A stretch of DNA of 34,024 bases from Promethearchaeia archaeon (GTDB taxonomy: Archaea > Asgardarchaeota > Lokiarchaeia > Sigyniarchaeales > SOKP01), in NCBI GenBank assembly GCA_029856125.1, contig JAHQWJ010000065.1, forward strand, positions 1-34,024, in the 5' to 3' direction. Each line of letters opens with the position of its first letter. The stretch's first letter is position 1. The translations under genes and the position numbers were made by a program. The notes under the pieces were generated by a model. That model worked only from the letters and a program-made list of their open reading frames with translations. It was not told the DNA's origin and ran no database searches. This document shows, piece after piece, positions 8,041 through 26,290 of the stretch.

Positions 8041-9351
8041 TTATATTTCGAGTTGAATTTGCCCATAAGTTCCTCCTCCACCAGGAGTGTATTCAACTTT
8101 ATTATTTCTTATTGCTTCGATAACCGTGGCAATATTCTCGTCAAATTTTTTGATTTCTTCAATTTCTTTATCAATTAAAATATCAAATTCGGTGCCTAGT
8201 TCATTTACCATTTTATCATATGATTTTAAAACTGTAACACTATTAGTGCTCTTAATTTTTTTAACCGCTCGAATTATATCCATTAAAGGAACTGCATTGA
8301 CGTATGGAGGCCTATGATTTGGATGTATTGTTTCGGCTGAAGTAGAAATAACATCTATTCTTTCACTGACTCCTAACTTTATTTTGATGTTTTTGTTAAT
8401 TTTTTCTTTACAAGCAGGACACACAATTTTCCCCTTGGATACGTTGTTAATATATGCTTTTCTCGCATTTAAGGGATTTTCTGACACTATTTTTATGAAT
8501 TCTTCTGAAATAGTATATTCATTAAAAAGTGTATCTTTAGTTTTTTCTGATTTACCGAACATTATTCTTCTTCTACATTTGTTGCAGAACATGTTATAAT
8601 ATTTTCCTAGCTTCGGGTGAAGTCCTACATTTAGTTCAATCTTGCGTTGATTTTTTCTTTCTAAGGCTAGTGCTAGTTCATAAAACGAAGGGTTTTCCAT
8701 CCTAATTTTGTTAAATTCTCTTCCTAAAGAGCGAGGACTTTCAGAATGTGCATCGCTATTGCTCAGAAAAGATATGTTTTTAAGAGAATCTAATTTATCA
8801 GCTAAATCTGTATTAGCTGAAAGTCCTAATTCTAAAAATTTCACTTTTTTAACGGCATCCTGATAGCATTGTTCGAGAGTTGCGTACTTATTTTGGCGAA
8901 AAATTGCTCTAAATGGAGTAAAAGCATGAGCAGGACCTATCATAGCTCCAAAATCTGTGATGATGTCAACTAGTTCTGCAGGAGGTAAATTTACCCTTGG
9001 GCGACCCCCCCATTCACCCAAAATATTTTTTGAATACGGTTTAAATTTTTTTTGGACTTCTCTTACGGTTGAAAAATCAGGAAAAAAAACCACTTCGTGA
9101 ATACTATCTTGATCTTCTATTTCGGTTTGTAAAATGAAAAAGAGATCCTTATACGAGAATGTCCCATTGTCGTCTTTTTTCAAATTCTTTTCTAAATACT
9201 TTAACCAATCCGGTTGCAACACATCTCCTGTTCCAAGGATATGAAGCCCTTTTTTCTTACCGGTTTCGACCATTGTATCTAAATTAAGTTTTTTAGATAC
9301 TGCAATTGAATGAGGTGAGTGGATGTGTAAGTCAGCATTAAATGAATCCAT
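8041..9351 (-). CDS. Endonuclease Q family protein (PHP domain + zinc finger + helical domain)
   Basis: ADLHIHS, GTGD, PAHAFTP, ELGLS, NSDAHS, LGREFN, GKY, CxxC...CxxC, GVSERI, HRPPY, terminal PGGGGTYG. Confidence 0.88.
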   Translation of the reverse strand: MDSFNADLHIHSPHSIAVSKKLNLDTMVETGKKKGLHILGTGDVLQPDWLKYLEKNLKKDDNGTFSYKDLFFILQTEIEDQDSIHEVVFFPDFSTVREVQKKFKPYSKNILGEWGGRPRVNLPPAELVDIITDFGAMIGPAHAFTPFRAIFRQNKYATLEQCYQDAVKKVKFLELGLSANTDLADKLDSLKNISFLSNSDAHSESPRSLGREFNKIRMENPSFYELALALERKNQRKIELNVGLHPKLGKYYNMFCNKCRRRIMFGKSEKTKDTLFNEYTISEEFIKIVSENPLNARKAYINNVSKGKIVCPACKEKINKNIKIKLGVSERIDVISTSAETIHPNHRPPYVNAVPLMDIIRAVKKIKSTNSVTVLKSYDKMVNELGTEFDILIDKEIEEIKKFDENIATVIEAIRNNKVEYTPGGGGTYGQIQLEI

Positions 9352-10552: not shown

Positions 10553-11590
10553 CTATATTACGCAAAAAATATCTTGAGTTTGATCTGTAAGTAAAATTCT
10601 TAAATGTTTTTCGCTTCCTTTGAAAATTACTTCTTCTAGTTTTCCTTTAGCTAACACGATTTCTCCATCCTTAGCGTGTTCACAAAATCTACCGCGAAAT
10701 GAGTTGATTTCAGTAATGTCTTTTAAGTTTATTCTATTTAGTATGAAGTTTTTATCCACGATTTCTATACCTTTAATTTTATAAGAGCAGGGAGTAAAAA
10801 TGGAATCGGTTGAATCTACAATCTTTGCTTTTATTTCAATCCTTCCTAAATTCTTGAATTTGTAATCGTAAAAATTTCCTTTCCAATCCTCCGGGCTTTT
10901 GATGTACCGAATAAAAAAATCGGTTCCATTGAATTTTCCTTGATGCAGCTTTCTTTTTTCACTTTTAAGAAAATTCTCAAAGCTAAAGCTAGATCCTCCA
11001 AATCTCCAATCGTAGTGAGTTCTATATTCTTGCATATTATATTTCCTTAAACTCTTTGATACGCCGAAGGTTTTTTTTAAATTATCTTGAAATTCTAAAC
11101 TTTCGCGAGTACCGTATATTAAAATATCTAAATCAGACTTCTCTTTATTTAGTCCGACCATGGGTGACCCAGATATTCCTATTGAGTTTTCAGGCACTAA
11201 ACATTTCTTGTTAAACAATTCACACAATTGTACTAAAGCCAATTCGCAATCTTCTAATTGGTTCTTCATTGTGAGGGCATCGTAATAATCCCTTGGGGTG
11301 TATATTTTTTTAATATCTCCGATTTTAACGCCTTGAAGTTCTAAATCAAGCTGGTTCGAAAAAAATAGATATTGTGGGTATTCCTCCCTCACTTTCAAAT
11401 ATCGTTCATCCAGGGAATAGACTTTTTTATATCTTTTTCCTTCCTTTATTCTTTCCCCATTTTGATCTGGATAAAATCTTAAAAAACAAATTTTTCGGTC
11501 TTGAGGGTGGTGATAACCTTTTATATCGAAAAATAGGTGGTTTTCTTTTGTTTCAAGGTAATCCCCTTCAATTCCTTTTGGAATCTTCAT
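10553..11590 (-). CDS. Archaeal predicted nucleotidyltransferase (Pol-beta superfamily, COG1665-like)
   Basis: GISGS-x10-SDLDILIYG motif, N-terminal F-x-x-KG-x-x-HP...FLR-x-YP, C-terminal FTPCSY...SFRGRFCE...GKLE. Confidence 0.8.
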   Translation of the reverse strand: MKIPKGIEGDYLETKENHLFFDIKGYHHPQDRKICFLRFYPDQNGERIKEGKRYKKVYSLDERYLKVREEYPQYLFFSNQLDLELQGVKIGDIKKIYTPRDYYDALTMKNQLEDCELALVQLCELFNKKCLVPENSIGISGSPMVGLNKEKSDLDILIYGTRESLEFQDNLKKTFGVSKSLRKYNMQEYRTHYDWRFGGSSFSFENFLKSEKRKLHQGKFNGTDFFIRYIKSPEDWKGNFYDYKFKNLGRIEIKAKIVDSTDSIFTPCSYKIKGIEIVDKNFILNRINLKDITEINSFRGRFCEHAKDGEIVLAKGKLEEVIFKGSEKHLRILLTDQTQDIFCVI

Positions 11591-15466: not shown

Positions 15467-16255
15467 TTATTTTTTTCTCGATGGAATCAAAGCAATTTCG
15501 TCATCATCATCAATAAAATAGTCCTTTATTTGCTTAGTTTCATCTAATATTATACCACCTGTGGAAAGGAGAAAATCTTCTAAACCATAATCAAATAGAA
15601 TTCCTACTTGTTCCTTGATTATATCTATGAATTCGGAGGTTTCAATAATGATGATTTTAGTTCTCTCCCCCGGTTCGACTAACGATCTTACATAAACCCG
15701 AACTTTATCATCCATTCCAATTGTGGTTAATGGAGGGTGGTATGTTATCTGTTCATCAGTTAAATCTTTATTTTTCCAAATATCATCAATAAGTTGCTTT
15801 CTCTCATCAGCATCAAAATACAACATCTCTCTGATAAAAAAGATTTTATCCATTTTTGAAAACCCTAACAAATCGATTTTATCTAATACTTCCTGAGTGA
15901 AAAATGTAAAAATATAATCATCGATTGACTCTATGTTTTCAAAGGATTCATCAGTATCAGCGTATTGATCTATTAATGGCATAGCTTCGATGTAATCCTC
16001 AACCAGATCGCGTGATATCCTTTTGACAGATTTTGGGTTTTGATAATATTTTTCTTTTTTTATCCTCTTTCCTGGGCTGCTTTTAGATTGAACAACGGTA
16101 TAAATCGTGCCTGTAGATAATACAGCAACGCTTCCAATAGTTAGAAAAAGAAATAAAGGTAAACTCTCTATTTGTAATAGGAAGAAAATCAAATAGATTA
16201 AAGCGAAAACAACATAAAGAGTAATAATATTTAAAACTCTGTATTTTTTCTTCAT
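15467..16255 (-). CDS. Membrane protein with two N-terminal TM helices and a C-terminal ubiquitin-fold domain (paralogue B, no terminal Gly)
   Basis: Two hydrophobic segments in the first 55 aa. The C-terminal VRVYVRSLVEPGERTK...DIIKEQVGILF....DFLLSTGGIILDETKQIKDY..DDDDEIALIPSRKK aligns by eye with the two soluble UBLs. Confidence 0.8.
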   Translation of the reverse strand: MKKKYRVLNIITLYVVFALIYLIFFLLQIESLPLFLFLTIGSVAVLSTGTIYTVVQSKSSPGKRIKKEKYYQNPKSVKRISRDLVEDYIEAMPLIDQYADTDESFENIESIDDYIFTFFTQEVLDKIDLLGFSKMDKIFFIREMLYFDADERKQLIDDIWKNKDLTDEQITYHPPLTTIGMDDKVRVYVRSLVEPGERTKIIIIETSEFIDIIKEQVGILFDYGLEDFLLSTGGIILDETKQIKDYFIDDDDEIALIPSRKK

Positions 16256-17279: not shown

Positions 17280-17609
17280 ATGAGTTTTGAAGAAGATTTT
17301 GATGAGGAATTAGAGCCAGTTAACTCTAAAACCCCATCAAGCAAAGTACCCTCAACAGGCAAGAAATTGACATTATATTTCATGTCAACTATTGGTCCTG
17401 GTGAAAAGAAGGAAAAATTGACTGTAAACGACGCTAATGAAGTAAGTGATATCAAACAAACGCTAGGAAATCTATTTGGACTTGATCCAGACGATTTTCA
17501 TATTTCATCCGGAGGAGTAACAATGGATGAGAATAGCCAGTTAAAAGACTATAGTGTTAATAATGGCGACGACATTCTTTTAATCCCAGCGAGTACAGCT
17601 GGTAAATAA
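17280..17609 (+). CDS. Ubiquitin-fold modifier, paralogue C (pro-form, ends IPASTAG-K)
   Basis: Beta-grasp pattern with ubiquitin-like QLKDY; first gene of the E1-E2-JAMM-RING operon; single penultimate Gly, no di-Gly. Confidence 0.88.
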   Translation: MSFEEDFDEELEPVNSKTPSSKVPSTGKKLTLYFMSTIGPGEKKEKLTVNDANEVSDIKQTLGNLFGLDPDDFHISSGGVTMDENSQLKDYSVNNGDDILLIPASTAGK

Positions 17610-17703: not shown

Positions 17704-18939
17704 ATGGTGATAATAATGGGTAAAGATTCAGATTTTTTTGCAAAAGGAATGTCAGAGGAAGAGAGAGACTTATACGATCGCCAATTTCGTTTAGAAGGAT
17801 GGTCCCAAAAATTAGTTAAGAATTCAAGAGTGTTAATAGCGGGTGTAGGGGGTTTGGGATGTGAAATTGCTAAAAATTTGGCTATGTTAGGTGTAGGTCA
17901 TATAGATCTTGTTGATATTGATATAATTGAACATTCTAATCTGAACCGTCAAATTCTCTTTGCTGGAGCAAAGTTAGGAGAACCTAAAGCATTTATTGCT
18001 GCTAGAAAATTGACTGAAATTAACCCCAATATTATTGTTAAAGGGTATCATACATCCTTAGAAAGATTAAATCCAGCACTCTATCACGCTTCAGATGTTG
18101 TAATTGGAGGTCTTGATTCGATGAATGCAAGGTTGAACTTAAACGCTCAATGCATTAGATTTAAAAAACCTTTGGTAGATGGGGGGGTTTCTGGTTATTA
18201 TGGTCACATATATACGATATTTCCATATCAAAATGCATGTTATGAATGTAATCCATTACCAGACATCAAGAATGATGATATGGCAGCTTGTACAGTAGTT
18301 GGAATCCCTCGAAAAAGAATTCATTGTGTTTTTAAAGGAGATATGGCCTTTAAAGAGAAATTTGACAAAGATCCGAATCCTAAAAATATCGAGGATATCA
18401 AATTTATTCAAAAAGTTGCAAATGAATACGTAGTAAAACACAATTTCTTACCTGAATATACTGAAGATGATGTCGTAAAAATTATTGATCGCCACGATCC
18501 AGGGATCATTACGATTAACGCAACTATTTCAGCATTACAATCTCACGAAGTGGTTAAAATCCTTCATTGGGAAAAAGGTCACAAGGGTTTAGGTGAGCCC
18601 ATCAAAAATTACATTATATTTAATGCAGTGACTATGAAATTACACCACATTGAAAAGAAGAGAAATCCAGAATGTTCTCAATGTGGTAAAAGTGCAAGAC
18701 GAGTTTCCATTAAAATGAGAGATATTTCACCTTGCGTAAATATAATTAAAACACTAGAAAGAAATGGATTTGAATTGGATTCTGAATTTGAACCGATAAT
18801 AACTCTATTGGATTTTAATGATATTATTGTTTTAGATTTAGAGCAAAATCCAACTCAAAACGGTTTAAGGAATTACGAATTTCTAACTGTTGCGGGGTTT
18901 AAAGGTGGAGAAATTTACGTAACCTTAAAAATTAAATAA
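17704..18939 (+). CDS. Ubiquitin-like activating enzyme E1 (ThiF/MoeB adenylation domain + UBA2/UBA3-type catalytic Cys domain + putative C-terminal ubiquitin-fold domain)
   Basis: YDRQFRL, GVGGLGCEIAKNL, D-x-D-x-IEHSNLNRQ-x-LF, LDS-x-x-AR, Zn ligands CYEC and CSQC, catalytic segment ACTVVGIPR-x-x-IHC. Confidence 0.93.
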   Translation: MVIIMGKDSDFFAKGMSEEERDLYDRQFRLEGWSQKLVKNSRVLIAGVGGLGCEIAKNLAMLGVGHIDLVDIDIIEHSNLNRQILFAGAKLGEPKAFIAARKLTEINPNIIVKGYHTSLERLNPALYHASDVVIGGLDSMNARLNLNAQCIRFKKPLVDGGVSGYYGHIYTIFPYQNACYECNPLPDIKNDDMAACTVVGIPRKRIHCVFKGDMAFKEKFDKDPNPKNIEDIKFIQKVANEYVVKHNFLPEYTEDDVVKIIDRHDPGIITINATISALQSHEVVKILHWEKGHKGLGEPIKNYIIFNAVTMKLHHIEKKRNPECSQCGKSARRVSIKMRDISPCVNIIKTLERNGFELDSEFEPIITLLDFNDIIVLDLEQNPTQNGLRNYEFLTVAGFKGGEIYVTLKIK

Positions 18940-18996: not shown

Positions 18997-19524
18997 ATGA
19001 GTATAAGAAGTAGTCGAGTTTCCCGAGATTTTGCGGGACTAAAAAAGTTGCTAAAGCAGGGTACTATTATTCAATTGAAGCCATTTAATCCAAAAAAGAA
19101 GAGCATCGATCACTTAGCTTTATTGATTAAAGGTCCTAAAGGTACTGCCTATGCTGGGGGATTGTTTAAATTAGAAATGAAGTTTCCAGTTCAATATCCT
19201 AAACAACCTCCTTTTGTCCGATTGCATACTCCTATATGGCATCCAAATTTTTGGCCAAAACCAAGTGAGTATAAAGGACAAAGAAATATTTGCTTAGCTT
19301 TAGTAGATCCATCTCTAGTTGGAAAAAAAGGGGGATGGAGTCCTTCAAAAACAGCAGTTACAGTCGTTCAATCAATTATTGCTATGTTAAACACTCATGG
19401 AAAATATGTTAATCCAACTGATGTGTTTAATAAAAAAGCAGCTATAGAAATGATGAAAAATCCGAAATTTTTTGATAAAAAAGTAAAAACTTTAGTAAAG
19501 AAGTATGCCAAGGATAAATGGTGA
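18997..19524 (+). CDS. Ubiquitin-conjugating enzyme E2 (UBC fold)
   Basis: GP-x-GT-x-Y-x-GGLF-x-L...FP..YP..PP...TPIWHPN...ICL...WSP...VVQSIIAML. Confidence 0.95.
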   Translation: MSIRSSRVSRDFAGLKKLLKQGTIIQLKPFNPKKKSIDHLALLIKGPKGTAYAGGLFKLEMKFPVQYPKQPPFVRLHTPIWHPNFWPKPSEYKGQRNICLALVDPSLVGKKGGWSPSKTAVTVVQSIIAMLNTHGKYVNPTDVFNKKAAIEMMKNPKFFDKKVKTLVKKYAKDKW

Positions 19525-19531
19525 ACCTAGA

Positions 19532-20335
19532 ATGAATTTCGATGAAAAGAATAGCGATTCTATCAGAGATGCTATAAAACAAAGAATTAAAGAGAAAATT
19601 AAAAAAGAATTACTTGAAGAAGTATACACAGAATTACAATTAGAAGAATTACAAGAAGAATTAACAACAGAAATTATCAAGGCGAAACCTATAGTTCATT
19701 CAAAAGAATTCAAAGCAAAACTTGAACCCATCCCGATGGAACCAGTAAAAACTACAGCTAGCAATGACAGAACTAAAGCTAAAATAGCTATCACTTCAAC
19801 AGCAATTCTTAAAATCGCGAGTCATTCATTAAAATATGCTAATTCTAAAATACATAGAGATGATTGGGTGGAAGTAATAGGTTTACTAGCAGGGAACTTT
19901 GATAGTTCTAAAGGAATCCTAAATCTGGAAGATGCTTATCCAATGGGACATGGAACAGCGGTCTATGCTGAAATAAAGGATTATAAGAATTATGTTAGAG
20001 CTTACAGAGATATTAAAAAAAAGGGACTGTTTATATGTGGTTGGTATCATTCTCATCCTTCTTATGGATGCTTCATGTCAAGAGAAGATTTAGGAACTCA
20101 AGCAAGATATCAAAAATTGTGGAATAAAGCTGTAGCACTCGTCATCGATCCATATCAAATTAACGGGAAATCGTTTGGTTTTGAAATTTATCGTGCAAAT
20201 TTTAAGACCAGGAAATGGTTCTCAGTGCCTTTTGATATTAAGGGGCATTTAGATGTGATGATGTTACCCGAAATTTTAGAATTCATGAACCCAATAATTG
20301 ATGGCAAACCAGTATATTTAGAATATGATGAATAA
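19532..20335 (+). CDS. JAMM/MPN+ metallo-isopeptidase (Rpn11/CSN5-like) with an N-terminal helical extension
   Basis: EVIGLLAG, GWYHSHP-x-YG-x-x-x-S-x-x-D-x-x-TQ, VALVIDP. ATG 19532 follows GGTGA (the track opens at 19505). Confidence 0.93.
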   Translation: MNFDEKNSDSIRDAIKQRIKEKIKKELLEEVYTELQLEELQEELTTEIIKAKPIVHSKEFKAKLEPIPMEPVKTTASNDRTKAKIAITSTAILKIASHSLKYANSKIHRDDWVEVIGLLAGNFDSSKGILNLEDAYPMGHGTAVYAEIKDYKNYVRAYRDIKKKGLFICGWYHSHPSYGCFMSREDLGTQARYQKLWNKAVALVIDPYQINGKSFGFEIYRANFKTRKWFSVPFDIKGHLDVMMLPEILEFMNPIIDGKPVYLEYDE

Positions 20336-20368
20336 AAAGATAAAAAACATCTTAGGTGATATCAAACC

Positions 20369-21493
20369 ATGGCAAGAAATAAAACTACACCAATAATATT
20401 TACTATTTTTCTAATAATTGGTGCAATCCATGGGTTACTCTCCTATTCTTTTTCTAATTTTGCGACTTGGTTATTAATTGGGTTATGGTTAATTTTTACA
20501 TTAAAGATATTTGGAAACATAAAACGTCACCGTGAGTTTAATTCACCGCATAATACTGCATTTTTTGTCATCGTTCCATTAGGTATTGGAATTTTTTATT
20601 CTATATGGGGATTTTATACTGGCATTTTAGGAGAAAACCTTCTTGGAGGAGTATATTTTAGTTTATGGAGCCTAATTTTTGCCTTTCCTTACGTATTATT
20701 TGGTTCTTACTCTTTATATCGTTGTTTTAAGAAATACAATGTAATATATTTTGGAACAAAAGCAGTAAAAGCTAGAGCGTTGGGATATATCCTATCATTT
20801 TCAGTTCTAATTTTTATTTTAGCCTATTGGATAAGTTTCTATAGTGGTATTGAGAGTATTCCATTGGATCTTAATCTCTTACTGCTATTAATAGCTACGA
20901 TTTTAATAGTTATAATTTTTGGGTTTACTAATACACGCTCATCATTACCAGCAATAACTCGTGATTACATTGCAAACCGTACTAGAACGATTAATAATTT
21001 AACCACACCTACAACACAGAGACAACGTGTACGGACAACGAGGGTAACTAACCCAACTCCATCTACTAGAACAACTACGCGCACAACAAGATCAAGAACT
21101 CAATCATCAAGGGCAACACCCACATCTCGTAAGCAAACTAATAGATCTAAAACATCAAATGTAACTCGTACCACTAGAGTCAAACCGACTCCAAAAATTC
21201 GAGATATTAATAAGTTTAAACCAAGAGCATCATATTTATCATTAGAGGATTTTAAGTGCATCTTTTGTTTTAAATTACCAAAACTTCCTGAAGATAGAGG
21301 ACGAGGAGTAGTTGTGTGTCCGAATTGTAGGTATCCTTCTCACGCTGACGAATTTAAAGATTGGATGCGAACTTCAAACCTTTGTTCACGCTGTAGTGCA
21401 TCTATTCCATCTAGTTTTAGGCGTAATCCAAGAGTAATAAGCATAAAAAATTATGTGATAATCTATAAACAATTTTTAAAGAAAAAAGCGTAG
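20369..21493 (+). CDS. Polytopic membrane protein with a C-terminal RING-like zinc finger (putative membrane E3 ligase)
   Basis: About six hydrophobic helices, a Thr/Arg/Ser-rich linker, then C-x2-C-x16-C-x2-C-x4-H-x2-E-x3-W-x6-C-x2-C; last gene of the E1/E2/JAMM operon. Confidence 0.8.
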   Translation: MARNKTTPIIFTIFLIIGAIHGLLSYSFSNFATWLLIGLWLIFTLKIFGNIKRHREFNSPHNTAFFVIVPLGIGIFYSIWGFYTGILGENLLGGVYFSLWSLIFAFPYVLFGSYSLYRCFKKYNVIYFGTKAVKARALGYILSFSVLIFILAYWISFYSGIESIPLDLNLLLLLIATILIVIIFGFTNTRSSLPAITRDYIANRTRTINNLTTPTTQRQRVRTTRVTNPTPSTRTTTRTTRSRTQSSRATPTSRKQTNRSKTSNVTRTTRVKPTPKIRDINKFKPRASYLSLEDFKCIFCFKLPKLPEDRGRGVVVCPNCRYPSHADEFKDWMRTSNLCSRCSASIPSSFRRNPRVISIKNYVIIYKQFLKKKA

Positions 21494-21527: not shown

Positions 21528-21546
21528 ACTCTCAAGAGTTTTTTTT
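21528..21546 (+). terminator. Possible terminator of the UBL operon
   Basis: Short stem ACTC-TCAA-GAGT running into an oligo-T tract about 35 nt after the RING gene stop. Confidence 0.3.
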
Positions 21547-21641: not shown

Positions 21642-22199
21642 ATGAATAACGAAAGAGTACAAGAACTTATAACACATCTTATTAAAGAAATTGAGGGAAA
21701 TGATCATTTACGACCAGCAACGAAAGAAACTCCAAAACGAGTAGCTAACGCTTATAACGAAATATTTGAAGGTTATCAACAAGATTTAGATAAGGATATA
21801 AAAATTTTTAAAGCGCAATATAGTGAAATTATTGTATCGAGAGGTATTCAATTTTATAGCATGTGTGAACACCACATCTTACCCTTTTATGGTACAGTTG
21901 ATATTGTATATATGCCTGGAGAATTTCTTTTAGGTATATCAAAATTCGTTAGAGTAGTTAATTATTTTACACATAGGTTAAATGTTCAAGAAAAAATGAC
22001 CGATGATATTGCTAATTATTTAATGAACTGCATTTTAAAACCAAGAGGAGTAATGGTTATAGTCAAAGGAACTCACTTGTGTGAGATAATGAGAGGTGTA
22101 AAACAATCTAACCCAATAATGGTTACCTCGGCTATAAAAGGAATATTTAAAACAAACCCTACGAGCAGATCAGAGGCATTGGAACTTCTAAAGATCTAG
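21642..22199 (+). CDS. folE: GTP cyclohydrolase I (type IA)
   Basis: ETPKRVA, FYSMCEHHILPFYG, GISKF, RLNVQEKMT, HLCEIMRGV. Confidence 0.95.
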   Translation: MNNERVQELITHLIKEIEGNDHLRPATKETPKRVANAYNEIFEGYQQDLDKDIKIFKAQYSEIIVSRGIQFYSMCEHHILPFYGTVDIVYMPGEFLLGISKFVRVVNYFTHRLNVQEKMTDDIANYLMNCILKPRGVMVIVKGTHLCEIMRGVKQSNPIMVTSAIKGIFKTNPTSRSEALELLKI

Positions 22200-22263
22200 A
22201 AACATCGTAATATCTTAATTGTAAAATTTTTAAATTAAAAAAGAAAAAACTTCTGAGCGTCTT

Positions 22264-23433
22264 ATGCCTAGAACGATCATTTACAGCGATTATGGTTTGA
22301 TTGGAGACGAATTGGAACTAAAAACGAATGTTTCGATAGAAATAGATAAAAATGGAAAGATCGCTAAACTTGTTTATGATAATATTCGAGATGATATTAC
22401 TTACTCGAATCAACCAAATTACATTATGATTCCAGGGCTAATAAATTCCCATATTCATATTTGCGATAGTTTTGCTAAAGAACAGGGTTTTAATAAAGAT
22501 TTATTAGAAGTTGTTGCTCCTCCAGATGGGTTAAAGCACAAATTGTTAGGAAGTATCTCAAAAGAGATTAAAACGCAAGGAATAAGAGAAGCAGCTTCAG
22601 AAATGCTAGCGAATGGTATAACTTCGTTTGTAGATTTTAGAGAAAATGGATTAACGGGTATAAATCTTTTAAAAGAGGCTTTAGATAATTCTCCAATTAA
22701 TTATCGTATTTTGGGAAGATATAACAATTCGGAAGATGCGAAATCCGTTCTGAAAAACGCTGATGGATTAGGTTTTGCGAGTTATGATCAACTTCCTCCT
22801 AAACATAAAGAAAATTTAGTTTTATTGAAAGAACAAAATTTAGAGAAAACTATTGCGTGTCATGATGCTGAGCTCTCGAGGGATGAGTTCCTGTTTAATA
22901 AAATAATAGATGACAAATTAATAGATGTCATTATACATGGAACGCAGTACACAATAGAAGATTTAAAAAGAATTAAGGAGAATAATATATCTTTGGTCTT
23001 ATGTCCTAGATGTAACGGTTATTTTGGAAGTGGATTTCCACCGATAAGCGAGATTACTAAGTTGGGAATCCCTATAAGTCTTGGTACTGATAATGTAATG
23101 GCAAACAATATTGATTTATTCGAAGAGATGCGTTATTTGTATAGAATTTCCCGTGTATTAGCAACCGGTAAGGAAGATAGTCATTTATCATCAAAAGAAT
23201 TACTAAAAATGGTTAGTGTTAATGCAGCTAAAAACATGGGATTGCATAAAGAGTTCGGGTCAATTTCAGAGGGCAAGTATGCAGATTTCTCTTTATTGAA
23301 TCTTTCTGATCCAAACTACTATACATATAAGATTGATAAAGAAAATATTTATAATATCATTGTTCAAAGAACAAAATCAGAAAACATAAAGAAGACATAT
23401 ATTAAAGGTGAGGTTGAATTTGAAAGGAATTGA
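22264..23433 (+). CDS. Metal-dependent amidohydrolase/deaminase (SsnA/chlorohydrolase-like)
   Basis: PGLINSHIH, G-x-T-x-FVDFRE, CHDAE, IHGT, VLCPR, LGTDN, GSI-x-x-GK-x-AD. Confidence 0.88.
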   Translation: MPRTIIYSDYGLIGDELELKTNVSIEIDKNGKIAKLVYDNIRDDITYSNQPNYIMIPGLINSHIHICDSFAKEQGFNKDLLEVVAPPDGLKHKLLGSISKEIKTQGIREAASEMLANGITSFVDFRENGLTGINLLKEALDNSPINYRILGRYNNSEDAKSVLKNADGLGFASYDQLPPKHKENLVLLKEQNLEKTIACHDAELSRDEFLFNKIIDDKLIDVIIHGTQYTIEDLKRIKENNISLVLCPRCNGYFGSGFPPISEITKLGIPISLGTDNVMANNIDLFEEMRYLYRISRVLATGKEDSHLSSKELLKMVSVNAAKNMGLHKEFGSISEGKYADFSLLNLSDPNYYTYKIDKENIYNIIVQRTKSENIKKTYIKGEVEFERN

Positions 23434-24088
23434 ACGCCCTTACGTAATTTTGAGTGCTGCGATGACAATTGATGGAAAAATTGCTTCTAAAACGGGTGAT
23501 CCAGATATTTCAGATGAAGAAGATTGGAAATTGGTTCATAAACTTCGAACTGAAGTAGATGCAATTATGGTTGGTAAAGGTTCAATTATATTGGATAACC
23601 CAAAACTACACATTAAATATTACGAGCACAAAGGTTATTATCGCGTTGTATTAGATAGCAATCTTTCAATACCAATTGGATCAAATGTGGTAACTTATAA
23701 ACCTGATATTTACCCCACTATTATAGTAACGACTGAAAATGCTCCTATCGAGAAGATTAAAGAATTCGAATCCAAAAAAGTTGAAATTATAAAGTCAGGT
23801 AAAGGGCGTAGAGTTGATGTAGTTGAATTAATGCCCATTTTGCATAATAAGGGAATAAAAAGGATTCTTTTAGAGGGCGGAGGTAATTTAAATTGGAGTT
23901 TTATTAAAAATAATTTAGTAGATGAGATTAGATTAGCAATTGCGCCTTGGATGGTTGGAGGTAAAAATGCCGTGAGTTTAGTGGAAGGAGATGGTTATGC
24001 AAAGATGCTTGAGAGTCCAAGATATTATTTATCTGATGTGAGTAGTAGAAATAACTATGTAACTCTTAACTATAAAAAAGAAAAATGA
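23408..24088 (+). CDS. 2,5-diamino-6-(ribosylamino)-4(3H)-pyrimidinone 5'-phosphate reductase (RibG/Rib7/ArfC-type, RibD C-terminal domain)
   Basis: RPYVILSAAMTIDGKIA, VHKLR..VDAIMVG, DNPKL, RVVLDS, LLEGGG.LNWSF..LVDEI. Start may be TTG 23420 after GGTGA. Confidence 0.88.
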   Translation: MRLNLKGIERPYVILSAAMTIDGKIASKTGDPDISDEEDWKLVHKLRTEVDAIMVGKGSIILDNPKLHIKYYEHKGYYRVVLDSNLSIPIGSNVVTYKPDIYPTIIVTTENAPIEKIKEFESKKVEIIKSGKGRRVDVVELMPILHNKGIKRILLEGGGNLNWSFIKNNLVDEIRLAIAPWMVGGKNAVSLVEGDGYAKMLESPRYYLSDVSSRNNYVTLNYKKEK

Positions 24089-25215
24089 TGAATCTTTCAC
24101 AGAAAGTAGAAGAACTGGAACATTTAACAATTAAAAAGTTAAAAGAAAAAATTAAAAACATTAAGAAGGAATTACCAAGAGAAGAACAAAACATAATCAC
24201 ATTTTCGAAGAACTTTACACTTTCCCTATCAAATTATTGTCAGAATCAATGTGGATATTGCTTCTATAACCAAACTATACCTAAAGAAAATAATGAACAA
24301 AATATTGTGTTAATTAAGAAGGATAAAATTAACGAATTAATTCAGACTGCAGTAAGGTATGGATGTACTGAAGCTTTATTAATGTCTGGCGAAGCTCCTG
24401 ATAATTTCAAAGTAGTTCAAGAAGAATTGAACAAAAGAAATTATCGTGATTTCTTCCAATTTGTTAGAAATTTAGGTGAATCTTTGTTAGATGTAAATCT
24501 TTTACCTCATACTAATATAGGTGTGCTCTCGTTTGCTCAATTAAAAAGCTTAAAGGAATTTAACGCTAGCATGGGATTAATGATTGAAAGTACTTGCGAA
24601 TCTCTTTCTAACCTTGGAGGAGTTCACGAAAATTCGCCCGGTAAAACACCAGAAAACCGAATTAAGCACATTACAAACGCAGGAAAATTAAAAATTCCTT
24701 TCACAACAGGTCTATTATTAGGGATCGGGGAGAAATTTCAAGATCGCGTAAAAGATCTTCTATTAATTAAAGAACTCCATCATAAATATGGTCATATCCA
24801 AGAAGTAATAATACAAAATTTTACAGAAAAAATAGGGATTCATTATCGCCCTAATAAGCCTATATCTATTGAAGAAACGCTCAAAACTGCAGGAATTGCA
24901 AAATTTATACTTGGAAATGACATTGCTATCCAAGTTCCACCTAATCTAATCCAAAATTACGAGAAAGAAGCCTTAAAAATGGGAATTGATGATTTTGGAG
25001 GTATATCTCCTTTTACTTTAGATTATATTAACCCGAAACACGCGTGGCCTAAAATTGACTTCTTAGATAAGATATGTGAAAGTAATGGATATAAACTTAT
25101 GGAAAGACTTCCTATATATAAGAAATATGTGAATAAAAAGGGTTTTTGTTCAGAAAAAATTAAAAAAACGATAAAGAATATTAACCACAATGTCGGAAGT
25201 AAAACAAATTCTTAG
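24085..25215 (+). CDS. cofG: FO synthase subunit 1 (radical SAM)
   Basis: ITFSKNF, CQNQCGYC, GCTEAL, LPHTN-x-G, NASMGLM-x-E, SPGK, PFTTGLLLGIGE, GHIQEVIIQNF, IQVPPNL, DDFGGISP...NP..AWP. Confidence 0.93.
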   Translation: MMNLSQKVEELEHLTIKKLKEKIKNIKKELPREEQNIITFSKNFTLSLSNYCQNQCGYCFYNQTIPKENNEQNIVLIKKDKINELIQTAVRYGCTEALLMSGEAPDNFKVVQEELNKRNYRDFFQFVRNLGESLLDVNLLPHTNIGVLSFAQLKSLKEFNASMGLMIESTCESLSNLGGVHENSPGKTPENRIKHITNAGKLKIPFTTGLLLGIGEKFQDRVKDLLLIKELHHKYGHIQEVIIQNFTEKIGIHYRPNKPISIEETLKTAGIAKFILGNDIAIQVPPNLIQNYEKEALKMGIDDFGGISPFTLDYINPKHAWPKIDFLDKICESNGYKLMERLPIYKKYVNKKGFCSEKIKKTIKNINHNVGSKTNS

Positions 25216-26290
25216 AAAAGCTGAAGATTCAGTTGAAATTAGCCCCGAAGAAGCTTTAACCCTTCTAAAACTAACGGGTAAAGATTTTGCACGTTTACAA
25301 AAAGTAGCTGATCAAATTTGTTTTGAGAAAAAAAATAATCTCGTGACCTTTGTCATTAATCGTAATATAAATTTTACAAATATTTGTTATCAAGGTTGTA
25401 AATTCTGCTCATTTAGCGTTACAAGTAAAGAAAAAGAGAGTTTCTTAAAAACTCTTGAAGAAATAAGAGAAGATGTTATTGACGCAAAAAATACCGGATG
25501 TACAGAAGTTTGTATCCAAGGAGGGATAAATCCAGAACTTAATTTTGATTATTACTTAGATATTCTGAAAAATGTAAAAAATATTGATTCAAACATGCAT
25601 ACACACGCTTTTTCTCCCCAAGAAGTATTTCATATGTCAAAAATATACGAAACTTCTATTAAAAATGTCTTAGAAGATTTAAAAAAAGCCGGTTTAGATT
25701 CTATGCCGGGAACTGCTGCTGAAATTTTGGTAGATGAAATTAGAAGAGTTATATGCCCAAATAAAATTACAACATCTCAATGGATTGATGTGATAAAATC
25801 TGCCCATAATTTAGGCATTCCTACAACTTCAACTATGATGTATGGGCACATTGAAGACTTACATGATAGAATAGAACATCTTGAAGTGTTGAGAAATATT
25901 CAGAAAGAAACGTCAGGTTTTACCGAATTTGTTCCTTTATCATTCGTTAGTGAAAAACCACTTTTATCTAAGTTATCAAAATACCCTTTAAAACCCAGTT
26001 ATGGAATGGCAGATTTAAAATTATTTTCTGTAGCACGAATTTTTTTTAATAATTACATTGATAATATTCAATGTTCTTGGGTAAAATTGGGTCCGAAATT
26101 TGCTCAAGTTTCTCTTAATTACGGAGTAAACGATTTTTCTGGGACACTAATGGAAGAAAATATATCAAAAAGTGCAGGTGCGGAATTTGGAGAATATTTA
26201 TCTCCAGAGGAAATAATTGAAATTATTAAAGCTGCAGGAAAACGCCCAGCACAGAGAGATACAATATATAAAATCTTAAAATTTTACTAA
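25190..26290 (+). CDS. cofH: FO synthase subunit 2 (radical SAM)
   Basis: VTFVINRNINFTNICYQGCKFCSF, TEVCIQGG, HAFSP, GLDSMPGTAAEIL, GFTEFVPL, NIQCSWVKLG, NDFSGTLMEENI; overlaps cofG. Confidence 0.93.
   Translation: MSEVKQILRKAEDSVEISPEEALTLLKLTGKDFARLQKVADQICFEKKNNLVTFVINRNINFTNICYQGCKFCSFSVTSKEKESFLKTLEEIREDVIDAKNTGCTEVCIQGGINPELNFDYYLDILKNVKNIDSNMHTHAFSPQEVFHMSKIYETSIKNVLEDLKKAGLDSMPGTAAEILVDEIRRVICPNKITTSQWIDVIKSAHNLGIPTTSTMMYGHIEDLHDRIEHLEVLRNIQKETSGFTEFVPLSFVSEKPLLSKLSKYPLKPSYGMADLKLFSVARIFFNNYIDNIQCSWVKLGPKFAQVSLNYGVNDFSGTLMEENISKSAGAEFGEYLSPEEIIEIIKAAGKRPAQRDTIYKILKFY

Follow-up and report, generated by a model that had tools for sequence, protein, structure and literature searches.

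The last gene of a ubiquitin operon was analysed in a 34,024-nucleotide stretch of DNA from a Promethearchaeia archaeon (contig JAHQWJ010000065.1; the whole stretch is called the window in the following). The operon comprises genes for a ubiquitin-like modifier (Ubl), an E1-like activating enzyme, an E2-like conjugating enzyme and a JAB metalloprotease, and its last gene, referred to here as the membrane RING gene, codes for a protein with six predicted transmembrane (TM) helices, a disordered tether and a C-terminal finger with a Glu at one ligand position. We read this gene as encoding a membrane-embedded RING-type ubiquitin ligase (E3), or at least an E2-recruiting subunit, of the Ubl-E1-E2-JAB cascade, and from sequence comparisons and structural models we estimate the probability of this reading at roughly 65%. 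It is the best reading because the finger is, by profile and model, a RING-superfamily domain, is predicted to be cytoplasmic and has a fixed last place in the Ubl-E1-E2-JAB operon.

The C-terminal finger

The finger has the motif C297-x2-C300-x16-C317-P-x-C320-x4-H325-x2-E328-x3-W332-x6-C339-x-R341-C342, with W332 located in the central helix. Compared with the RING pattern C-x2-C-x(9-39)-C-x(1-3)-[HC]-x(2-5)-[HC]-x2-C-x(4-48)-C-x2-C, seven canonical ligands are in register and the sixth is the non-canonical Glu328. A finger-only profile (A4, an alignment of 21 diverse members) was run against 177,635 PDB sequences and matched human RNF24 (E 4e-6), RNF4 (E 1.5e-4) and EL5 (E 1.7e-3); ARK2C/RNF165, RNF38 and Arkadia followed near 1e-2, and the RINGs of HRD1, listerin and gp78 matched more weakly. 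Alignment of A4 by hhalign to a canonical RING-H2 protein from the same genome, which passes PF13639 (zf-RING_2), gave a probability of 93% (E 3.5e-7). The alignments to RNF24 and to this RING-H2 protein both place H325 at ligand 5, E328 at the Cys of ligand 6 and W332 at the RING Trp. The initial annotation, which was made from the letters of the DNA, had described a C4-H-(E)-C2 finger with Glu in sixth place, followed by an x3-W helix and a final Cys pair, and this description is confirmed by the alignments. An AlphaFold model built with 22 close relatives reached an overall predicted local distance difference test score (pLDDT) of 52, and one built on a 71-sequence alignment reached 82.6; the latter was used throughout. 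In this model the finger has a pLDDT above 90, and the structural matches to it are RING and U-box domains that span the whole domain.

Single-sequence searches were weak: nothing was found above the Pfam cut-offs, and the listerin RING matched with an E of 0.43. The best Pfam match of the single sequence was Zn_ribbon_15 (E 0.005, below the cut-off), while members of the family matched zf-RING_2, Prok-RING_1 and zf-RING_16, all below the cut-offs, and NCBIfam gave no match on four family members. The Zn_ribbon_15 match, together with an Arg-rich basic linker that could bind polyanions, would fit a finger outside the ubiquitin system, that is a zinc ribbon or another treble clef on a basic tail which binds nucleic acid or lipid and whose operon position is incidental. 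However, the profile matches are RING E3s in full ligand register, the Trp included, on which grounds a plain zinc ribbon was rejected; moreover, the structural matches are to RING and U-box domains and the E2/JAB gene order is invariant across Asgard classes. We hold such a function to be extremely improbable. A PHD finger, which the initial annotation had named as one of the outcomes that would overturn its proposal, was also rejected: the Trp is located six residues before Cys7, which is the RING position, whereas the PHD Trp is found two residues before Cys7. In addition, no PHD domain turned up in the 50 best rows from Foldseek and from each of the two VIA-align lists, nor among the profile matches.

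Conservation of the finger was determined in 219 full-length relatives with a search pattern that fixed the four Cys pairs only, so that the other positions were free. Ligand 5 is His and the helix residue corresponding to W332 is Trp in 219 of 219 relatives, ligand 6 is Glu in 218 (the single exception, P0138, has Ala), and the position preceding Cys8 (R341) is Arg in all of them. Ile follows Cys1 in 210/219, and the second residue after Cys1 is Phe or Ile in 215/219, so that hydrophobic residues of the E2-binding type are present at this site. Since the free positions (His, Glu, Trp and R341) are near-invariant across the 219 members, the finger pattern is not due to chance. In about 12% of the members a His is found two residues past C320, which is the ligand-4 position of RING-H2 fingers; the pattern suggests descent from a RING-H2 domain that gained C317 and changed Cys6 to Glu. 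Zinc site 2 is most likely made up of C317, C320, C339 and C342 and site 1 of C297, C300 and H325 plus E328, whose assignment as fourth ligand of site 1 is taken from the alignments.

Several observations weigh against an E3 function. Foldseek of the whole model against the PDB gave no match at an E of 0.001 or lower, and none of the Pfam RING models reaches its cut-off on any member tested. Structural zinc sites rarely have Glu among their ligands, and site 1 might bind zinc weakly or not at all. Active monomeric RING E3s typically, though not universally, have Arg or Lys directly after Cys8 and Pro after Cys7; in the 219 relatives no Lys or Arg occurs at the linchpin position after Cys8, where S, N, D, G, A or E are found instead, and the residue after Cys7 is usually Ser or Ala, with Pro in just 9. 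Finally, soluble canonical RING proteins of the same genome could serve the E2 of the operon. In the E3 srfp of Candidatus Caldiarchaeum subterraneum the linchpin R69 is functionally important, but so are the hydrophobic I30 and W58, which are needed for activity (PMC5654768) and whose equivalents in the membrane RING speak for an E3.

The linchpin being absent, a weaker reading had to be considered, namely that the finger merely docks the E2. It would then bind E2 (or Ubl) and concentrate the cascade at the membrane without activating the discharge of E2~Ubl, and transfer would be left to soluble RINGs or to the E2 alone, much as Cue1 anchors Ubc7 at the endoplasmic reticulum (ER). The lack of Arg or Lys at the linchpin position, the rarity of Pro after Cys7 and the fact that the genome encodes several soluble RING-H2 proteins of the canonical kind, with CPLCR in one, are in line with a dock, and operon linkage and membrane location fit it equally well. 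On the other hand, the strict conservation of E2-contact-type residues and of Arg341 in 219 members exceeds what tethering seems to need, and the lysine-poor tether described below suggests active ubiquitin transfer nearby. Taken together, a pure dock appears unlikely to us, and an E3 subunit remains the preferred reading.

In the finger core (window 21317-21400) the profile also matched two IFT-A subunits, IFT144 and WDR19, namely their zinc fingers at the C-terminus (E 5e-4 to 1.2e-3). The top Foldseek row was an IFT-A chain, followed by GATOR2 RINGs, and Pfam Zf_2nd_IFT121 weakly matched 8 of 44 members. A link to the RING-like tails of coat proteins is possible, and so is convergence.

Membrane domain, topology and tether

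Hydropathy and the AlphaFold model concur on six TM helices, at residues ~6-25, 28-48, 64-84, 91-113, 137-159 and 168-187, and the pLDDT of this domain is mostly above 90. Lys and Arg residues are clustered at the N-terminus, in loops 2-3 and 4-5 and past TM6; the remaining loops are short and acidic. From this distribution across the loops the finger is predicted to be cytoplasmic and, therefore, on the same side as E1, E2 and Ubl, and the positive-inside rule gives this orientation in 71/71 aligned relatives. The number of helices agrees with the initial annotation, whose proposal would also require a cytoplasmic finger, and the Thr/Arg/Ser-rich linker, first put at ~90 amino acids (aa), was found again with a length of ~97 aa. 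The most conserved residues of the TM domain are P107, F66, P70, the cytoplasmic R55/N58-S59-P60 (R-x-x-N-S-P) before TM3 and K122-Y123 after TM4.

The linker is rich in Thr (28), Arg (18) and Ser (9 among 99 residues counted), has a pLDDT below 50 and is 72-156 aa long across the family, with a net charge of +6 to +35 that is never non-positive. Its K/(K+R) ratio is 0.25, as against 0.71 for the remaining window genes (binomial p 4e-6); pooled over the family it is 0.29, and in 69 of 71 relatives the linker lies below the remaining protein. Residues 135-254 are free of any lysine. In a genome-wide control with the 13 proteins that have a comparably polar, basic segment of 97 residues, the membrane RING was the extreme with 0.18 against a median of 0.82. 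Arg is favoured over Lys in the tether, which is unexpected given the AT-rich genome; the G+C content of the window is ~32%. In disordered parts of proteins of the ubiquitin system a "lysine desert" limits self-ubiquitylation (PMC10169902, PMC10665810), and the depletion of lysine in the tether fits this pattern and an avoidance of self-ubiquitylation. It suggests, as independent and indirect support, that Ubl is transferred near the tether. Alternatively, the preference for Arg may reflect an Arg-specific role in the binding of lipid head groups.

When residues 1-204 were searched by HMMER against 1.84 billion representatives, just 48 clusters matched, all of which have the same architecture (~340-450 aa) or are pieces of it. 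The TM domain had no match in Pfam (searched with the TM half alone), NCBIfam, PDB sequences or the ESM Atlas, and an internal 3+3 repeat was not found (hhalign probability 1.2%). A plain anchor would not need a six-helix bundle that is conserved, specific to the family and equipped with conserved motifs on the cytoplasmic side, and the TM domain could be the business end of the protein, for example a transporter, channel or sensor, with the finger turning the protein into a regulated target or a regulator, such as by turnover through auto-modification. But the finger is far better conserved across Asgard classes than the TM domain, no transporter or channel family was matched in Pfam, NCBIfam and the structure comparisons run, and the avoidance of lysine in the tether and the neighbouring helices speaks against self-modification as the purpose. 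This makes such a role very unlikely in our view.

The combination of a TM bundle and a RING also raises the question of a true relationship to the Hrd1-type ligases of ER-associated degradation (ERAD), in which case the bundle would be homologous to the retrotranslocation domain of Hrd1 and would extract membrane or secreted proteins for Cdc48 and the proteasome. No credible similarity of the TM domain to Hrd1 was found, the structural likeness to HRD1 being at noise level, and we consider this relationship highly improbable. Genes for ESCRT, Cdc48 or the proteasome were not found within the window; elsewhere the genome encodes two ESCRT-III genes and five Cdc48-like ATPases, neither of them linked to the operon. 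Both conceivable downstream routes (ESCRT-III and Cdc48-like) are encoded in the genome and we favour neither. The initial annotation had proposed an archaeal analogue of ERAD-type membrane E3s; of this, the membrane-anchored E3 is retained as the best reading, whereas the ERAD-specific part is not supported, with no sequence relatives of the TM domain outside the family and none of the above genes in the window. Its restriction to an architectural analogy was appropriate, and the analogy stays architectural because the TM domain is confined to its own family and shows no credible similarity to Hrd1.

The operon, its conservation and a proposed mechanism

The five genes for Ubl, E1, E2, JAB and membrane RING are co-oriented, with the RING gene in last position (Table 1). 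Contrary to what had been stated at first, the E2 gene is not adjacent to the RING gene, since the JAB gene sits between them and E2 is two genes away.

Table 1 Features of the ubiquitin operon and of the membrane RING gene; positions refer to the window.
Feature	Position	Strand	Remarks
Ubl gene	17280..17609	+	first gene of the operon; 109 aa; C-terminus ...PASTAGK; PF00240 ubiquitin E 1.6e-5, just under cut-off
E1-like activating enzyme, ThiF family	17704..18939	+	411 aa; PF00899 ThiF E 1.7e-57
E2-like conjugating enzyme	18997..19524	+	175 aa; PF00179 UQ_con E 2e-25; HPN motif and NICL cysteine
JAB/MPN metalloprotease	19505..20335	+	276 aa; PF01398 JAB E 5.1e-14; directly 5' of membrane RING gene
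Shine-Dalgarno-like GGTGA	20355..20359	+	9 nucleotides 5' of ATG at 20369; read from sequence
Membrane RING gene	20369-21493	+	374 aa; ATG start, TAG stop; open reading frame (ORF) judged real
Six-TM domain	20369..20929	+	residues 1-187; predicted N-in/C-in; hydropathy and AlphaFold
Disordered basic linker	20930..21220	+	residues 188-284, ~97 aa; Thr/Arg/Ser-rich, lysine-poor
Cytoplasmic variant RING (predicted)	21221..21490	+	residues 285-374; short N-terminal and long C-terminal flanking helices
Glu328 codon	21350..21352	+	RING ligand position 6
Run of eight T	21539..21546	+	46 nucleotides past the stop of the RING gene, followed by AT-rich spacer; likely end of transcription unit

The JAB gene lies directly 5' of the RING gene in 77/77 Loki-type loci, E2-JAB was found in 74/74 and E1-E2-JAB in 68/68, and the order Ubl-E1-E2-JAB is present in 63 of the 64 related loci with sufficient flank. 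E2-JAB-RING are also contiguous in the distant loci of other Asgard families (14 of 14). Because the genomes are kin, these counts show conservation and not independent events. The gene has the conserved placement in an operon with ubiquitin, E1, E2 and JAB/Rpn11 genes by which the E3s of archaeal ubiquitin operons are recognised.

A protein search yielded 383 relatives, nearly all of them "hypothetical" or without a name. Of the 301 genomes sampled from the phylum, 163 had matches with an E of 0.001 or lower, many weaker ones being restricted to the finger; full-length matches with 25-30% identity occurred in families beyond the class of the window, and one large family had none (0/76). Named records are all Asgard save one (Promethearchaeota, Loki_b31/b32, Helarchaeota, Harpocratesius); the sole non-Asgard title, a Nanopelagicaceae bacterium, is probably a mislabelled bin. 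A distant branch is labelled Heimdallarchaeota or Heimdallarchaeaceae, the taxon labels of these metagenome-assembled genomes being the submitters' own. The family is without a model in Pfam and NCBIfam, and one JGI record bears a probably spurious label as membrane-protease regulator. Judged from the genes, a Loki/Heimdall-type operon with a candidate membrane E3 implies that membrane-bound ubiquitin ligases probably predate eukaryotes. A bolder scenario would make the six-TM Glu-variant RING the ancestral E3 of the operon before the split of Loki and Heimdall types, with a TM bundle that selects or extracts membrane proteins and hands them to Cdc48/proteasome or ESCRT as a prokaryotic forerunner of ERAD and endolysosomal quality control, and with Glu328 and Arg341 as a new way of E2 activation; as a whole, this scenario seems to us decidedly unlikely.

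In the following scheme for the membrane-anchored E3 we infer that the Glu binds zinc and that the finger binds the E2 and acts as a ligase, as well as the kind of substrate and the task of the TM domain. The six TM helices would hold the protein in the cytoplasmic membrane with both termini inside, and the disordered, basic and lysine-poor tether of ~100 residues would allow the RING to sweep along the inside of the membrane. Two zinc ions would be bound by the finger in cross-brace style, and I298/F299, two hydrophobic residues that follow the first Cys, could dock the charged E2 of the operon together with W332. In this way the RING would promote the attachment of Ubl to lysines in proteins of the membrane or close to it, which are probably chosen by the conserved TM domain, and the JAB protease would mature the Ubl (ending AGK) and reverse the tag.

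The Ubl itself has one Gly followed by one Lys (AGK) instead of Gly-Gly at its C-terminus and carries an acidic N-terminal extension of ~25 aa. In the E2 (window 18997-19524) the loop preceding the HPN motif is Q-Y-P-K-Q-P-P; in UbcH5-type E2s, the Phe following Y-P contacts RINGs. The Lys and Gln of this loop and the invariant Arg341 of the finger may form a co-adapted, non-canonical E2-RING interface.

The membrane RING is linked to the operon but is not the sole candidate E3, since the genome has other, soluble RINGs. These are canonical and, in a crude hydropathy scan, apparently soluble. At least three seemingly soluble proteins of 191, 105 and at least 512 aa pass zf-RING_2, the 191-aa one having CPLCR with the linchpin Arg, and two paralogues of ~390-400 aa have zinc ribbons and a Prok-RING_1-type finger (the zf-RING_2 and Prok-RING_1 proteins are found on contigs C8, C140, C36, C84, C135, C9 and C42, loci L055-L062). 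Some related genomes have a second gene of ~190-226 aa that comprises linker and finger only, with 41-43% identity to residues 187-372 (e.g. G210:C6:374753-375292, G279:C341:30458-31039, and P0193 with 188 aa on a 45-kb contig), and which appears to be a paralogue of the membrane RING that lacks the TM domain. Short relatives of the finger were also sought by word matching, which mostly retrieved pieces of the membrane RING family. Most of the distant orthologues (L021, L023, L028, L031, L033, L034, L035-L054) have no ATG near the conserved N-terminus; from their sequences they appear to start at TTG or GTG (e.g. with the N-termini LELNN and LVGRN), whereas the gene of the window has ATG.

Downstream of the RING gene (window 21642-26290) follow genes for GTP cyclohydrolase I, an amidohydrolase, a RibD_C reductase and two radical-SAM CofG/CofH-like proteins. 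The GTP cyclohydrolase I cluster trails the RING gene in only 9/80 related loci and, therefore, this cluster is taken to be outside the ubiquitin unit. On the 5' side of the operon three minus-strand ORFs (8041-9351, 10553-11590 and 15467-16255; 436, 345 and 262 aa) had no Pfam match; their neighbours code for a TPR protein, a coiled-coil protein of 367 aa and a double winged-helix regulator. The rest of the window contains housekeeping, FtsZ, TPR, coiled-coil and pterin/F420-type genes.

Comparison with known systems

RING E3s of archaeal operons are already known, as are polytopic RING ligases of eukaryotes; an overview of human transmembrane RNFs has been published (PMC4021871). New are the significant RING profile matches, the alignment of ligand 6, the analysis of the linchpin, the lysine depletion with its genome-wide control and the family-specific TM domain. 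Within the literature searched, which lacked the 2011 and 2012 papers of Burroughs et al., no description of a six-TM RING in an Asgard ubiquitin operon was found. By the accepted view, the ubiquitin system of eukaryotes started, on the archaeal side, from operons that encode small soluble RING ligases. If a polytopic operon ligase was indeed present in Loki/Heimdall-type Asgard archaea, the main business of the ancestral system may have been the tagging of membrane proteins, which would bear on the origin of ERAD, of MARCH-type down-regulation and of ubiquitin-dependent ESCRT sorting. Furthermore, the five genes are a compact and expressible test system for a RING with a predicted Cys2-His-Glu zinc site and no canonical linchpin.

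Like Prok-RING_1 (PF14446), the membrane RING is a prokaryotic finger encoded next to Ub, E1, E2 and JAB genes. The Prok-RING_1 model matched 11 of 44 members (best E 1e-4), none of which reached the cut-off of 29.1 bits, and the window protein scored 9.9-12.1 bits; a search of its own genome with this model at E 0.1 missed the membrane RING gene and found another protein above the cut-off. A further difference from Prok-RING_1 is that, in the searches run, the six-TM domain was seen exclusively in records labelled as Asgard. Membership of Prok-RING_1 was rejected; that of the Hrd1 or RINGv families is not supported, RINGv being absent from the 25 listed of the 34 Pfam families that 44 members matched at E 0.1. 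The Pfam entry for Prok-RING_1, which is said to go back to Burroughs, Iyer and Aravind in 2011, reportedly includes bacterial versions with TM helices; if so, these would be a conceptual precedent. With the IFT-A subunits IFT144, WDR19 and IFT121 and the GATOR2 RINGs the finger has the motif C-P-x-C-x-[FY]-P-A in common, and WDR19 has a Glu at the same place. These fingers are tails of large, soluble, coat-like proteins, lack the His and the Trp and are not known to act as E2-activating ligases; the resemblance covers just a short stretch and could be due to convergence.

Hrd1 and gp78 (RING-H2) and MARCH/Doa10 (RING-CH, C4HC3) also combine a multi-TM domain with a cytoplasmic RING, and the C4-H-x-C2 ligand order of the membrane RING resembles RING-CH and listerin-type fingers. 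In contrast to Hrd1, gp78 and MARCH, the membrane RING has Glu as ligand 6, would reside in a prokaryotic cell membrane instead of the ER and has no detectable TM homology to them. Moreover, its finger is C-terminal, whereas RING-CH is usually N-terminal to the TM helices of MARCH/Doa10.

Small soluble RING E3s encoded in ubiquitin operons of archaea have been described, and such systems have been reconstituted (PMC5654768; bioRxiv 10.1101/2023.07.25.550441). The proteins of the srfp type are small, soluble and canonical RING-H2 fingers with a linchpin Arg, whereas the membrane RING has 374 aa, six TM helices and a tether of ~100 aa. Its finger differs from srfp by the C-P-x-C arrangement of ligands 3-4, by Glu as ligand 6, by the absence of a basic linchpin and by an Arg that invariably precedes the last Cys. 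It shares with the Caldiarchaeum srfp a hydrophobic residue close to Cys1 and the Trp in the helix, and like srfp of Candidatus Caldiarchaeum subterraneum (PMC5654768) and the soluble RING E3 of a Helarchaeial operon (bioRxiv 10.1101/2023.07.25.550441), the membrane RING is encoded in one operon with ubiquitin, E1, E2 and a JAB/Rpn11 protease.

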